Positions 8,953-14,649 of a stretch of DNA of 17,402 nt are shown here, in pieces. Each line of letters opens with the position of its first letter. Position 1 is the stretch's first letter. The notes under the pieces are model-generated. The model worked only from the letters and a program-made list of their open reading frames with translations. It was not told the origin of the DNA and made no database searches. A program made the position numbers and the translations under genes. Origin of the DNA: a virus (Duplodnaviria; Heunggongvirae; Uroviricota; Caudoviricetes). The stretch spans positions 1 through 17,402 of IMG/VR virus record IMGVR_UViG_2617270979_000005, one strand, 5' to 3'.

Positions 8953-9723
8953 TCACTTTTCCGACACAATACGACCGGATGAATCGACAATCTGTCGAAC
9001 AATATCCCGGTGCTTGTACAGCTCCCGCAGCGCGGCGCAGACTCGCTCCCACTTCTGAACCTGACCTTTTGCCCGGCGCAGCTCGCGGTTAGCCACATGC
9101 AGCGATGGTAAAATCAGACCATCCGGATGTTTTCTGGTGAACGACGGCTGTGACTGCACTGTGACCGCCACACTTTCAGTTTTTATTTCTTCCTGTGTTT
9201 CCGCTTCCCGGACAGGTAACGCAATACCTGCTGGCTGAGGAATGGCTTTACCATCCGTTTCCGCTACGGATGCAGCTTCCGGCTCTGCCGGTAAATCAGC
9301 GCCCGGTATGCAGTAACGAAATTTACCGTTCTGATTTACGCGTGCCAGGCGCCCCGTTGCTGTTACGACCGCCAACGTGGAAGCAACCTTGCGAATGCTA
9401 ACACCGAACTTATCCGCCAGTTCCTCACACGTTTTAGCCCCATCCTGACAGATAAACTCAATCATCATGTCCGCGGTAACTTTTTGTTCGACCTCCCCGG
9501 TCAGCATATCCTGTGCTTCAGATTTTACTGGCCGCTCTTCGGTTACCCGGGATTCACCTTCGCCAGCCAGAAACCAGGTGTGACCAGTTTTATCAACGAC
9601 GCCATTTCTTTTGAGTTCCCACAGCTCGTTGACAGCCTCTTCACGACTGATTCCAAGGCGAGCTGCCACCACATGTGAAGAGGCTTTTTTCAGTGCTTTC
9701 AGTGCGTCAAATACGGTTTCCAT
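8953..9723 (-). CDS. Hypothetical nin-region protein (256 aa), acidic, possibly DUF1627-like
   Basis: ATG at 9723 preceded by GGAGG (8-nt spacer); N-terminal winged-helix-like segment 'AARLGISREEAVNELWELKRNG'. DUF1627 assignment is a weak recollection. Confidence 0.55.
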   Translation of the reverse strand: METVFDALKALKKASSHVVAARLGISREEAVNELWELKRNGVVDKTGHTWFLAGEGESRVTEERPVKSEAQDMLTGEVEQKVTADMMIEFICQDGAKTCEELADKFGVSIRKVASTLAVVTATGRLARVNQNGKFRYCIPGADLPAEPEAASVAETDGKAIPQPAGIALPVREAETQEEIKTESVAVTVQSQPSFTRKHPDGLILPSLHVANRELRRAKGQVQKWERVCAALRELYKHRDIVRQIVDSSGRIVSEK

Positions 9724-9756
9724 TAATATTTCCTCCGACAAAATCGTTTCTCAGAT

Positions 9757-10419
9757 TCAAATAAAACCAGCTGCCTTCCGGCGTTCGTATTCCTGTTTCA
9801 GCCGTTCAATTGGCGTTGGCCCTTGCGGGTGTTTCGCCCCTTCCAGTTGTCGTCGCACTGGCGGAACACTCATCCCGTTACCAACATGCTTTGCCCATTT
9901 CGTCAGTTGCCGTTCCGCAAGTCGTTTTAACTCACCCTGCGTCATCTGGCGCTCAATCCCTCTGGTACGCATTTCGAGGCAGATGTGGTACAGCACAGGC
10001 TGTGGCCACGGGTATTTATCACTCCCGTCGTATCGCCAGGATTCATTGCGCCAGCGCCGGTACTCTTCCATCACTGCATCCACCGTAAGACCAAATGGAT
10101 TTGCCCCACTCTCCGAAATCAGTGCAACAAACTCAGCCAGGTCCGGGGGCCACGTTTCACCCGCCCGGCAGCGGTCCATGCACTGACGGCAGACCAGCCG
10201 GATTTGCTGTTCAGTCATCGCGCCAATCTGGGCAATCCAGAGCTTCGAAGGTGCGGCCCCGTTCTTCTGTGTCCAGCGGTTCGAATACACCTCCCCCATA
10301 AGCTCCCACAGCTTCCAGGCCGTTTCCGTTGCTGATAAATCCGTTGTCACGTTCCCACTGTTCGCGTGCTGCCCGGATTTCCTGAACTGCCCGTGATGCC
10401 GTGCCACCTGATGCTGCAT
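9757..10419 (-). CDS. Replication protein P-like (lambda P family helicase loader); start uncertain
   Basis: 220-aa ORF; C-terminal half aligns by eye with remembered lambda P (…YPWPQ…/…YPWKS…, …TEQQ…/…TMEQV…); ATG 10419 has an AGGGGG RBS but overlaps the O-like gene by 209 nt; alternative ATGs at 10299 and 10218. Confidence 0.65.
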   Translation of the reverse strand: MQHQVARHHGQFRKSGQHANSGNVTTDLSATETAWKLWELMGEVYSNRWTQKNGAAPSKLWIAQIGAMTEQQIRLVCRQCMDRCRAGETWPPDLAEFVALISESGANPFGLTVDAVMEEYRRWRNESWRYDGSDKYPWPQPVLYHICLEMRTRGIERQMTQGELKRLAERQLTKWAKHVGNGMSVPPVRRQLEGAKHPQGPTPIERLKQEYERRKAAGFI

Positions 10420-11227
10420 GGCTTACCCCCTTGCTGACTGGTTTTACCTGTGCCCTGACGTGCTGCACGTGGCGGGCAAATTTCTGCTCCCACTGAACCT
10501 GCGTGAAAACCTTCCCCTCCGCCATCCAGTAATCCCGGAATGCGGCAAGCTCTGCAGGTGTAAATTCCGGCTCAGGCAGAGCCATACCCCACACTGCTGC
10601 CCGTTGTCGAAAATCCGACGACAGCTGCCAGACAGTAGTCATCGAAAATTTCCCGATCGGTTCGCTCAGGCCGTCCAGGTATTCAGGTTCGGCTGTCTGC
10701 AACGGCGCACCATGCGACTCACCGGTTGGAGCACTCTCGCGCATGCGCGCGTTATGTGTGGGGTTTAATTCTGTATCTGTATCTTTATCTGTCGTGACTT
10801 GTCGTGACATGTGCGTGACATTTCGTGACGCGCCGTGACAATCGCCATTTTGTTCCCGCTTTCTTTCCCTCTCACGCTGCGCCCTCTTGCGCTCTGCCGG
10901 AGATTTTGCGGTTTGCGAAATATTGCCGTTGTCCTCTTTAAGCACCTGGCGTTTTTCCCATCCAGTGATTAAATCACCATCAAGTACCCGCCCCTGCATC
11001 GTCTGCAAAATTGAATCAATTACCTCTTCTGTCACGTCGAGCGCACTTGCCAAATCTTCTGTCGTGACATCAATGTGACCTCGCGTGACATTTCGTGACG
11101 CGCTCACCAGGAGGTGGATATACACTGCCATCACTGTTGCAATTGGCTGCCCTGACACCCTGGCAATTGTTCGCCACTTAGGGTCATTTGGCATGTCATG
11201 CCATAATCTGAGCCAGGCGTTAGCCAT
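10211..11227 (-). CDS. Replication initiator (O-like, iteron-binding replisome organiser)
   Basis: 338-aa ORF from ATG 11227 (GAGGTG RBS; track start 11233 is GTG); contains two arrays of CGTGAC iterons; sits immediately upstream of the P-like gene as in lambda O-P. Confidence 0.7.
   Translation of the reverse strand: MANAWLRLWHDMPNDPKWRTIARVSGQPIATVMAVYIHLLVSASRNVTRGHIDVTTEDLASALDVTEEVIDSILQTMQGRVLDGDLITGWEKRQVLKEDNGNISQTAKSPAERKRAQRERERKREQNGDCHGASRNVTHMSRQVTTDKDTDTELNPTHNARMRESAPTGESHGAPLQTAEPEYLDGLSEPIGKFSMTTVWQLSSDFRQRAAVWGMALPEPEFTPAELAAFRDYWMAEGKVFTQVQWEQKFARHVQHVRAQVKPVSKGVSHAASGGTASRAVQEIRAAREQWERDNGFISNGNGLEAVGAYGGGVFEPLDTEERGRTFEALDCPDWRDD
10791..10840. repeat. Iteron array A: five CGTGAC-core repeats at 10-11 bp spacing (candidate origin), inside the O-like gene
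   Basis: CGTGAC at 10793, 10803, 10814, 10824, 10834; preceded by tatct repeats (10770-10790). Confidence 0.65.
11061..11103. repeat. Iteron array B: four (C/T)GTGAC-core repeats at 10-11 bp spacing, near the 5' end of the O-like gene
   Basis: CGTGAC at 11063, 11084, 11094 and TGTGAC at 11074; the 21-mer GCGTGACATTTCGTGACGCGC (11083-11103) is an exact copy of 10813-10833. Confidence 0.6.
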
Positions 11228-11298
11228 ACTCACCTCTTCTGATACCGAATCTTTTTACTCACGAGTTGCCGGAAGCGATTCGATATGGCTATTGTCAG

Positions 11299-11724
11299 TC
11301 AATGTACTGCCACAGCATTTCCTGCCGGGCCACCACGGTTCATCTGATTGAAACCGGCGATTGCCACTGCGACAAAATCATCAGCGTCTCTCACCAGTCG
11401 CTCCCGCGTCTCCACCAGCTCCCGAAAATAAGCTGAACTGTGGCTGCGCATTCTGGCCACCAGCAAAGGTGGCATTGCCTTTTCGATCGCTGGTAACAAC
11501 GCCTGAATTTTTTCAACTGCATCAGGGGTGTCTTTCTCTACCCAGCGGAAAATTTTCTGGGTATTACGGGCCAGGGCTTCCGGATGGCTGTCGTCGTACA
11601 GTTCCGGGAACGTCATCCCCAGTTCGAAATAAGTCCGGGCTATTTCAGCTGCTGGAACTTTCTCACCGTCTGGATACGCCCAGGCATTCATTGCCATGCG
11701 GATGTGTTCATGCTTGATTTTCAT
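11299..11724 (-). CDS. YdaT-like protein (Rac-type, proposed cII-like regulator/toxin)
   Basis: 141-aa ORF; ATG 11724 with GGGGGTGA RBS; N-terminus 'MKIKHEHI' resembles remembered Rac YdaT; directly downstream of the Cro-like gene. Confidence 0.65.
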   Translation of the reverse strand: MKIKHEHIRMAMNAWAYPDGEKVPAAEIARTYFELGMTFPELYDDSHPEALARNTQKIFRWVEKDTPDAVEKIQALLPAIEKAMPPLLVARMRSHSSAYFRELVETRERLVRDADDFVAVAIAGFNQMNRGGPAGNAVAVH

Positions 11725-11983
11725 GAATCACCCCCGCCTCTGGTTGTGTGTTAGCCTGATACTCGACAGGTAAGCCGTCGGTTGGGTTGGGATAAGTACT
11801 GCCATCAATCTCGTGCGGAGTTACTATCCAGCCTGTTGCTTCGCACCAGCGTAAAATTTTTTTCCCCGTAAGTTTCGCCCGTCCGGTAATGACATGGCTT
11901 ACCATCCCTTGGGTTACCCCAACAATTTCAGCAAAATGCTTCTGAGTTATACCGGAATGATGCAAATATTCTCCAAGATTCAT
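11708..11983 (-). CDS. Cro-like HTH protein (YdaS family)
   Basis: 91-aa ORF; ATG 11983 with GAGGTGA RBS; HTH 'ITQKHFAEIVGVTQGMVSHVITG'; divergent from the repressor gene. Confidence 0.7.
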   Translation of the reverse strand: MNLGEYLHHSGITQKHFAEIVGVTQGMVSHVITGRAKLTGKKILRWCEATGWIVTPHEIDGSTYPNPTDGLPVEYQANTQPEAGVIHENQA

Positions 11984-12090: not shown

Positions 12091-12591
12091 ATGAAAAGAA
12101 AATCCCTGTCAGAGATCGACCTGCAAGCCGCCCAGAGACTGAAAGAAATCTGGACGGCGAAAAAAAATCAACTAGGGTTAACCCAAGAGCGTGCGGCAGA
12201 AATTCTGGGATTTTCGACACAGGGAGCTGTAAGCCATTATCTAAATGGTCAGACACCTTTAAATCTTGAGGCTGTTATCAAGTTCGCAGGGTTGCTGCAA
12301 GTTCCTCCCGAGTCAATCAGACCAGATATGGCCGAGTTGTTACAAATTGTAAGGATGTATCCCCAAGAATCTGGGGAGGACAATGTTGTCACTATATCTG
12401 CAGATATGGAACAATCGGAAAACGAACTTCCGTTTAATATAGACCCCATGGAGCGGGATTTGCTCCAGACGTTCAGGGCTTTCCCCAAAGAAGATAAAGA
12501 GAAAATGCTTAAGGAAATGAAGGAGAAAAAAGAATCAATTGAAGAAATCGTTGCGCGATGGCTAGCTGCGCAAAAGGGTCGTCGCGCCTAA
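12091..12591 (+). CDS. Prophage repressor, XRE-family HTH (RacR/DicA-like, no S24 peptidase domain)
   Basis: 166-aa ORF; HTH 'LGLTQERAAEILGFSTQGAVSHYLNG'; divergent from the Cro-like gene; 5 of 10 Arg codons are AGA/AGG and 2 Ile codons are ATA. Confidence 0.8.
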   Translation: MKRKSLSEIDLQAAQRLKEIWTAKKNQLGLTQERAAEILGFSTQGAVSHYLNGQTPLNLEAVIKFAGLLQVPPESIRPDMAELLQIVRMYPQESGEDNVVTISADMEQSENELPFNIDPMERDLLQTFRAFPKEDKEKMLKEMKEKKESIEEIVARWLAAQKGRRA

Positions 12592-12608: not shown

Positions 12609-12800
12609 ATGAGTACAGCCCTTTCCCCGATAATTTCTGAATTTGAAACAGTCGAACAAGAAAACAGCTATAACGAATGGTTGCGAACCAAAGTGGCAGC
12701 AAGCCTCTCAGATCCCCGTCCTGCAATTCCACATGACGAAGTAATGGCTGAAATGGAAAACCTTATTGCTCAATTAGCTGCAACGAACAGGAGTGAGTAA
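12609..12800 (+). CDS. Type II antitoxin (ParD/RHH-like) paired with the downstream ParE toxin
   Basis: 63-aa ORF; GAGGAGG RBS at 12594-12600; stop overlaps the toxin start (TAATG); family assignment by partner and size only. Confidence 0.65.
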   Translation: MSTALSPIISEFETVEQENSYNEWLRTKVAASLSDPRPAIPHDEVMAEMENLIAQLAATNRSE

Positions 12801-13090
12801 TGCTGCCCATTTTATGGCTACCTTCTGCACGTGATGATTTACGTCAGATCGTAGCCTATATTGCTAAGGAAAACCCTCCCGCTGCACGTAGACTAAAAAT
12901 ACGCATTGAAACATCAGTTTTGTCACTTACTGAACACCCTTATCTGTACCCACCGAGCGAAAGAGTTCCAAGTCTTCGTGAGATAGTGACTCATCCTAAC
13001 TACATAATACTTTACCGAGTAACAGCATCTAACATCGAGATCGTAAATGTAGTTCACTCACGAAGACAGTATCCAAACAAAACCTGTTAA
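12800..13090 (+). CDS. ParE/RelE-superfamily toxin
   Basis: 96-aa ORF; ParE-like pattern 'LWLPSARDDLRQIVAYIAKENPPAARRL … ILYRV … IEIVNVVHSRRQ'; translationally coupled to the antitoxin. Confidence 0.8.
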   Translation: MLPILWLPSARDDLRQIVAYIAKENPPAARRLKIRIETSVLSLTEHPYLYPPSERVPSLREIVTHPNYIILYRVTASNIEIVNVVHSRRQYPNKTC

Positions 13091-14596: not shown

Positions 14597-14649
14597 TTTC
14601 TGGTGACGTTTGGCGGTATCAGTTTTACTCCGTGACTGCTCTGCCGCCC
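14597..14649 (+). ncRNA. dicF: DicF small regulatory RNA
   Basis: 53-nt stretch TTTCTGGTGACGTTTGGCGGTATCAGTTTTACTCCGTGACTGCTCTGCCGCCC followed by TTTTT matches the remembered DicF sequence; located between ydfC-like and dicB as in Qin. Confidence 0.85.

Follow-up and report, generated by a model that had tools for sequence, protein, structure and literature searches.

Why would a phage replication initiator gene carry two arrays of the same short repeat within its own coding sequence? The gene in question lies in a stretch of viral DNA of 17,402 nucleotides (nt) (IMG/VR record IMGVR_UViG_2617270979_000005, Caudoviricetes), here called the window, which represents the immunity and replication region of an Escherichia coli lambdoid prophage with the early-right operon on the minus strand. 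It encodes an O-like replication initiator of 338 amino acids (aa), followed by a lambda-P-like helicase loader gene. A preliminary description had reported iteron-type arrays in this initiator gene, and proposed that they might be two origins, an origin plus an autoregulatory site, or a recombination remnant. We favour, with moderate confidence, the reading that the gene carries a two-part origin in its own coding sequence, in which one array (array A) together with an adjacent AT-rich tract would form the core, and the other (array B) would be an accessory element.

Two iteron arrays in one initiator gene

The iteron-type arrays were indeed found inside the O-like gene, with the P-like loader downstream. 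The relevant elements are the following, in window coordinates:

10211..11227, minus strand: O-like replication initiator gene, 338 aa (open reading frame (ORF) and translation)
11063..11099, minus strand: array B, four direct cores at gene nt 129, 139, 149 (GTCACA) and 160
11031..11036, plus strand: inverted core, GTCACG on the plus strand, 32 base pairs (bp) promoter-distal of the last direct core of array B
10793..10839, minus strand: array A, five direct GTCACG cores (gene sense) at gene nt 389, 399, 409, 420 and 430
10764..10792, minus strand: AT-rich hexamer tract, ACAGATAAAGATACAGATACAGAATTAAA in gene sense, encoding the peptide DKDTDTEL
10738..10749, no strand assigned: perfect 12-bp GC palindrome CGCGCATGCGCG just beyond the AT-rich tract (sequence and reported stem)

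On the plus strand the five cores of array A read CGTGAC, at 10793, 10803, 10814, 10824 and 10834, and their spacing of 10, 11, 10 and 10 bp agrees with the phasing first reported. Tandem Repeats Finder returned a period of 10 with 5.0 copies at 10790-10840, and the repeat unit of about 10 bp contains an asymmetric core of 6-7 bp, TGTCGTGACA. Array B lies upstream of array A by about 230 bp. It had been credited with four cores, of which three are exact CGTGAC (11063, 11084 and 11094) and the fourth is a degenerate TGTGAC at 11074. The inverted core and the minus-strand orientation of the gene had been overlooked. In total, the plus strand holds 12 CGTGAC sites, and in 5 pairs the neighbouring sites are 10-11 bp apart, whereas 300 first-order Markov simulations (mean of 3.55 sites) gave zero such pairs and never more than 2 sites per 50 bp.

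The exact 21-bp duplication between the arrays was recovered as GCGTGACATTTCGTGACGCGC at 10813-10833 and 11083-11103, 270 bp apart, with 0 expected from 200 shuffles. Its double unit, TCACGnAATGTCAC, is present in array B of 15 and in array A of 10 of the 25 GTCACG-type loci (core types are described below), and because this unit recurs in the arrays of such loci, the exact 21-mer largely equals a conserved unit, which argues against a simple recent duplication. In the protein, the DNA repeats are mirrored by the peptide ASRNVT, which occurs twice, at aa 43-48 and 133-138, as had been stated.

The repeats noted next to array A as "tatct" correspond to a period-6 tract, TCTGTA in 3.8 copies at 10770-10792. 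The lowest GC content of the initiator gene (0.375 at 10760-10799) is found here, immediately promoter-distal of array A, and the AT-rich tract is presumed to be a candidate DNA-unwinding element. Around array B the GC content is 47-60% and there is no repeat tract. Both regions vary in length among E. coli alleles. A 12-bp unit, ACAGATAAAGAT, is present in 1-4 copies (L002-L007 versus the window), the palindrome CGCGCATGCGCG carries a 6-bp indel polymorphism in L002, L004 and L005, and alleles with six array B cores, where others have 4, contain a 21-bp insertion that adds 7 aa, TCHGVSL, to the encoded loop. The lambda origin likewise has a palindrome beyond its AT-rich region. A scan for internal promoters and terminators gave matches at background level only, with no promoter overlapping array B, and an Rfam search found no RNA family in the array region.

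Both arrays are under selection at the DNA level

Cores lie in each of the three reading frames, where they are translated as Ser-Arg, Val-Thr, Cys-His or Gly-His, so that the repeated ASRNVT is a translation by-product of the DNA. Selection was assessed in a codon-by-codon alignment of 21 divergent GTCACG-type homologues and in a second, independent group of 13 CGAACG-type loci, by comparing the entropy of conserved residues whose third codon base falls inside a core with that of conserved residues outside, using the Mann-Whitney test. The normalised codon entropy was 0.09 in cores versus 0.81 outside for the GTCACG-type loci (p = 8.6e-8), and 0.08 versus 0.76 for the CGAACG-type loci (p = 3.7e-4). 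At conserved residues outside the arrays nearly all synonymous codons are in use. Within array B, Ser44 is TCA in 20/21 loci, Val47 and Val54 are GTC, Thr48 is ACG and Gly50 is GGT in 21/21, and His51 is CAC in 20/20; within array A, His131 is CAC in 19/19, and Ser134 (TCA) and Val144 (GTC) are fixed in 21/21. The V65 codon of the inverted core is GTG in all 17 cases in which a valine is present, and two Cys-Asp variants at this position still read GTGAC. The GAT/AAA/GAT codons of the AT-rich tract are nearly fixed over the 21 loci as well. Thus, both arrays and the AT-rich tract are under selection at the DNA level.

Relatives of the N-terminal part of the initiator comprise 801 proteins (E <= 0.001), and were found at 63 loci in species-representative genomes, on at least 594 viral contigs and on 461 metagenome stretches. 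A first scan of viral contigs gave only close E. coli relatives and was of no use for co-variation. Comparison with relatives, the check that the preliminary description had named, showed two arrays conserved in position across divergent loci: most loci have two arrays inside the gene, one at nt ~125-165 and the other at nt ~345-450, and the 2-kb flanks contain no cluster of this kind. This layout is present in Enterobacteria, Pseudomonas, Bordetella, Chromobacterium, sphingomonads and metagenome-assembled genomes (MAGs) of Acidobacteria. Family-wide, (GATAAA)n or purine-rich repeats come after array A. The core type varies by lineage (GTCACG, CGAACG, GTAACG or GTGACG) and is identical in both arrays of each. 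Among 129 distinct homologous loci, 116 have a recognisable array A, and 102 of these have a matching array B (25/27 for GTCAC, 71/79 for GAACG, 5/6 for GTAAC and 1/2 for GTGAC). The inverted copy follows the core type too, since GTGAC has become GTTAC in the GTAACG-type locus L034.

The two arrays are not equivalent in their retention. Array A is found in almost all family members, including those that lack array B, and is the only array next to an AT-rich tract. Array B is absent in L043, L045, L059, L066, L217, L227 and L209, all of which have kept array A, and the reverse was never seen. In L214 the ancestral loop peptide SNATERG is kept, but synonymous substitutions have removed every CGAACG core (TCA AAT GCG ACA GAG CGC in place of TCG AAC GCA ACC GAA CGC), which separates selection on the peptide from selection on the DNA. 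Array B is maintained only where array A has the matching core, as expected if the initiator binds array B.

Two side observations concern the edges of the family. L049 (a Serratia MAG) and L064 (Pantoea) have neither array type, carry CTACGTAG/GTAGTA repeats at gene nt ~330-480 and encode a different downstream domain; these loci may use a different origin type. In several Pseudomonas phages (H50-H55) the annotation splits the homologous initiator region into two hypothetical proteins, which points to miscalled genes across the repeat region.

The initiator protein, its candidate specificity helix and the gene neighbourhood

Three segments of the initiator matter for the location of the arrays and for their specificity:

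10943..11227, minus strand: coding region of the N-terminal winged-helix-like domain, aa 1-95 (AlphaFold2 model)
10850..10906, minus strand: coding region of the basic helix, aa 108-126, KSPAERKRAQRERERKREQ, candidate specificity determinant (AlphaFold2 helix 110-126)
10448..10648, minus strand: coding region of the DnaT-like single-stranded DNA-binding domain, aa 194-260 (PF17948, 54.8 bits versus a cut-off of 25)

The AlphaFold2 model has a mean predicted local distance difference test (pLDDT) score of 72.5, with 88-96 over aa 11-90, where helices 16-25, 29-45, 56-63 and 67-77 are followed by a beta hairpin. The segment encoded by array B covers the end of helix 29-45 and the surface loop of aa 46-55, inside this N-terminal DNA-binding domain, and the inverted core falls in the helix-turn-helix coding segment, at D64-V65-T66. 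Array A encodes aa 130-146, part of the linker that follows helix 110-126 and separates the N-terminal DNA-binding part from the DnaT-like domain; this linker is disordered in the model (pLDDT < 50 from aa 136).

The protein matches PHROG replication-initiation families (phrog_1408, E 2e-109), and its coding sequence (CDS) is annotated identically by RefSeq in an E. coli locus that is 99.9% identical. A whole-protein Pfam scan gave DnaT only, with no match to Phage_rep_O (lambda O), and the NCBIfam DnaT model matched the same aa 194-260 region (E 2.3e-25). The N-terminal part aligned with Phage_rep_org_N and TIGR01714 over the whole model (1-119/119), at sub-threshold values (E 0.002-0.017) that do not reach the replisome-organiser family cut-offs (15.6 bits versus 23.3 for PF09681, and 18.2 versus 49.8 for TIGR01714); on these alignments, a remote kinship with replisome organisers of the SPP1 G38P type is plausible. 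Foldseek against the PDB returned generic winged-helix regulators only (MarR, CRP, GntR; E > 0.2), and a profile search of PDB sequences with the initiator gave nothing relevant.

Natural chimeras point to a part of the protein that may read the core. In one narrow clade with near-identical winged-helix domains and AT-rich tracts, the basic helix and array A have been exchanged:

L045/L171 and L214: AERKR/ADRKR helix, ATGTCACGCC repeated 3-5 times
L173: DRVRE helix, GTAACGCC-like repeats
L186: TERSRQ helix, ATGCAACGCC in four copies
L227: ERVKK helix, GTAACG
L209: AERTK helix, GTGACG

These chimeras mostly lack a matching array B; L186 is a partial case, with 2 copies of its 5-mer core in the array B zone. 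The winged-helix part does not track the core, as, over aa 1-100, L045 and a CGAACG-type protein share 81% identity. We then scored, over the 129 distinct loci, the residue that follows "ER" in the basic helix. Lysine accompanies GTCAC in 24/27 loci when parsed by script, and in 26/27 when L009 (ERKN) and L014 (ERKA), read by eye, are added. GAACG goes with Ala, Ser or Gly in 72/79 and never with K, V or T, GTAAC with Val in 5/6, and GTGAC with Thr in 2/2. From these sequence comparisons, iteron specificity appears to be set by the basic helix whose coding segment directly precedes array A, in which case helix, array A and AT-rich tract would be transferred jointly as a cassette. Another candidate for the specificity reader, the loop peptide specified by array B, was rejected, since L045/L171, L214 and L043 have GTCACG or CGAACG cores in array A but lack the loop peptide or codons that belong to these cores.

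Exchange is also seen at one further feature:

10765..10775, no strand assigned: mosaic recombination joint, inside the AT-rich tract (comparison with phage Evi)

Phage Evi and many E. coli prophages are ~99% identical to the window from the start of the gene through the AT-rich tract (in Evi, through gene nt ~455) and unrelated thereafter, and many E. coli and phage matches cover only query positions 560-1090, corresponding to window 10770-11300. A joint at ~10770 implies that the N-terminal part, both arrays and the AT-rich tract are exchanged as one unit, and fusions of this array-bearing N-terminal part to unrelated C-terminal parts were found. Lambda O shows the same division of labour, between an N-terminal/origin unit and C-terminal recruiting domains.

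The genes surrounding the initiator are those of a lambdoid replication region, with cro-, cII/YdaT- and cI-like genes upstream and the loader directly downstream, overlapping the initiator stop by 8 bp:

12091-12591, plus strand: cI-like repressor
11708-11983, minus strand: cro-like helix-turn-helix gene
11299-11724, minus strand: YdaT/cII-like gene
9757..10218, minus strand: lambda-P-like helicase loader gene (Pfam PF06992, 58 bits; phrog_109 P-like loader; RefSeq CDS coordinates)

Upstream of its annotated start the loader frame is open for a further 201 nt (9757-10419, minus strand), and the resulting ORF of 220 aa extends into the 3' end of the initiator gene. As the Pfam match starts at about aa 58 of the longer ORF, the shorter annotated start fits. 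Downstream of the loader, a DUF1627 gene is intact in the window (8953-9741), and is interrupted by an IS3 element in E. coli 2013C-4991 (L001 1119-2332). It contains two GTGAC pentamers 11 bp apart (9150-9165, plus strand), which are not full CGTGAC cores and are probably due to chance. Immediately downstream of the cI-like repressor is a RelB/RelE-type toxin-antitoxin pair (12609-12800 and 12800-13090, plus strand), named as RefSeq annotates it in locus L001, which is 99.9% identical. Further away, the window contains a full-length Rfam match to the DicF antisense RNA (14598-14649, plus strand, 76.7 bits), typical of Qin/Kim-type lambdoid prophage regions, and, near its left end, two tRNA genes (882-955 and 1059-1131, minus strand; RF00005, 68 and 72.5 bits) that probably represent a phage tRNA cluster upstream of the late genes. 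A sok-type antitoxin RNA (7454-7634, minus strand; RF01794, 61 bits, barely over the gathering score) overlaps the start of a DNA methyltransferase-like ORF (6399-7523), which suggests a hok/sok-like module.

The role of array B and relation to known origins

By analogy, array A and its AT-rich tract are the counterpart of ori-lambda, and we interpret array B with the inverted core as an accessory site cluster of the same specificity. In the favoured two-part origin, initiator protomers would bind both arrays on one helix face, and protomers at arrays A and B could join into one looped nucleoprotein complex. Such a complex would raise the local occupancy by initiator and the stress on the AT-rich tract, and the tract, so aided, would unwind, after which the C-terminal domains may recruit the P-like loader with host DnaB. 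That array B has an enhancing effect is held with much less confidence than the model as a whole. Only tentatively, and as something that we consider rather unlikely in its entirety, do we put forward a fuller version, a looped bipartite origin built from three in-frame elements (the direct array, the inverted copy, and the core array with its unwinding tract), in which the basic helix and not the winged helix would read specificity. In this version the helix residue (K, A/S/G, V or T) would track one or two core bases, helix and array would be exchanged as one cassette, and every such exchange would be followed by the rebuilding or loss of the accessory array.

Several points weigh against the two-part origin. 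Initiator binding, the unwinding site, looping and a positive effect of array B are all steps that we infer. The AT-rich tract is short (~29 bp) and moderately AT-rich. Lineages without array B persist, so that array B is non-essential, which is equally compatible with a negative regulator. Shared ancestry partly confounds the association between helix residue and core, to which L023 and L030 (Ala) are exceptions. Helical phasing between the arrays gave a Rayleigh R of 0.3-0.63 at all periods of 9-12 bp, with a peak at 9.8, and thus no specific 10.5-bp signal, because the inter-array distances are similar by descent. In the literature we found no experiment on any family member, and the 25 deposited phage genomes with the domain include no model phage. 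Papers on iterons with replisome organisers, DnaT-like proteins, the Eru classification of Stx phages and TP901-1, to which access was limited so that a prior description is possible, do not describe the family or a dual intragenic array.

The strongest competitor, which we regard as possible but doubtful, is that array B is a negative element, either blocking, from the 5' part of the gene, RNA polymerase that arrives from the early promoter (with autoregulation of O-P and damping of transcriptional origin activation) or titrating or handcuffing the initiator of array A. It would account for an array that has the specificity of the origin yet was lost in several lineages, and, seen from the promoter, array B precedes the rest of the O-P operon. 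The conserved inverted core that accompanies array B also fits, as inverted iteron copies are the autorepression operators of iteron plasmids such as pSC101, R6K and F. Furthermore, in V. cholerae ori2-inc, iterons additional to those of the minimal origin titrate and handcuff (PMC6090056). However, no promoter overlaps array B, restraint of copy number is not obviously needed in lytic phage replication, and a positive role fits the same sequence evidence. Far less probable is a bound array B that acts as a roadblock for replication forks, causing unidirectional replication or the switch from theta to concatemer synthesis. This idea takes its appeal from the SPP1 model, in which a fork meets gp38 firmly bound at oriR (PMC6316719), and from the presence of dense initiator sites near the origin on one side only, but array A, only ~230 bp away, would carry bound initiator as well, and the idea does not explain why the inverted copy is conserved.

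That each array starts its own initiation, as two independent origins, is a slimmer prospect again. The arrays are separate, of similar size and in the same orientation, and in SPP1 the initiator does bind two origins, oriR and oriL, the latter within gene 38 (PMC6316719). Against this, an AT-rich tract flanks array A only, and array B has been lost from several lineages in which the near-universal array A was kept, never the reverse. We attach the least probability, close to none, to a neutral duplication or recombination remnant, or to selection on the ASRNVT peptide. The shared exact 21-mer and the repeated peptide had made these options attractive, but they are excluded by the codon data, with cores lying in three frames and their synonymous sites frozen while neighbouring conserved codons are near saturation. 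In addition, the cores co-vary between the arrays, L214 has kept its peptide while the cores decayed, and both arrays keep their positions within the gene across the Proteobacteria and in some Acidobacteria. Of the three explanations offered initially, an origin with an auxiliary or autoregulatory site is therefore the one that survives.

Iterons inside the initiator gene are textbook, and the two-part layout is a variant of the lambda-type intragenic origin. As in lambda, where iterons (4 in lambda, 6 in Stx phages) and an AT-rich tract halfway along gene O form the site of the O-some (PMC7466680), array A is followed by an AT-rich tract in mid-gene, between DNA-binding and loader-binding segments, the N-terminal part and the origin would act as a specificity unit, and a P-type loader gene comes next. 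The window protein itself differs in not being a lambda O homologue and in its DnaT-like C-terminal domain. Its cores are direct repeats of 6-7 bp, one per helical turn, whereas lambda iterons are ~19 bp long, have internal dyad symmetry and are bound by initiator dimers. Moreover, the window has a second array and an inverted copy in the region coding for the DNA-binding domain, outside the linker. SPP1 resembles it in that the replisome organiser G38P binds direct repeats beside an AT-rich element in its own gene, with the loader next, and also binds a second set of sites elsewhere, oriR (PMC6316719; PMC5615212), as the window initiator is presumed to do. However, oriR is ~13 kb away, non-coding and has its own AT-rich element, whereas array B is ~230 bp away, coding and without such a tract. 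Iteron replicons, such as V. cholerae with ori2-min and ori2-inc, also combine a minimal origin with a separate cluster of the same specificity, and P1 incC/incA, the 5+3 iterons of RK2 and P4 ori/crr are further replicons with auxiliary clusters. In V. cholerae ori2, titration, handcuffing or enhancement are the ways in which the auxiliary cluster acts on initiation (PMC6090056). Most clusters of these replicons lie outside coding sequence, and the replicons themselves are plasmids or chromids with copy-number control and other initiator families, whereas both clusters of the window lie in the initiator reading frame of a lytic-type lambdoid module. In the literature accessible to us, which was limited, neither a conserved second array with an inverted copy in the DNA-binding-domain coding sequence, nor the concerted change of array B with the core array, nor a cassette of helix plus array was found described.

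Parts of this module are present in about half of the complete E. coli genomes (2556/5426), with up to 6 matching places per genome in a full-query search that includes partial C-terminal and P-like matches, and no characterised member of the family was found. The arrays are a case of overlapping codes, in which the sequence of a protein loop would be dictated by the sites for that same protein. If the reading is true, the cores GTCACG, GTAACG, GTGACG, CGAACG and GCAACG form a natural specificity series, one or two bases and one helix residue apart, and the module would be a compact system in which replicator and initiator specificity change jointly. In that case, iteron type should predict whether the origins of co-resident prophages can cross-activate each other.

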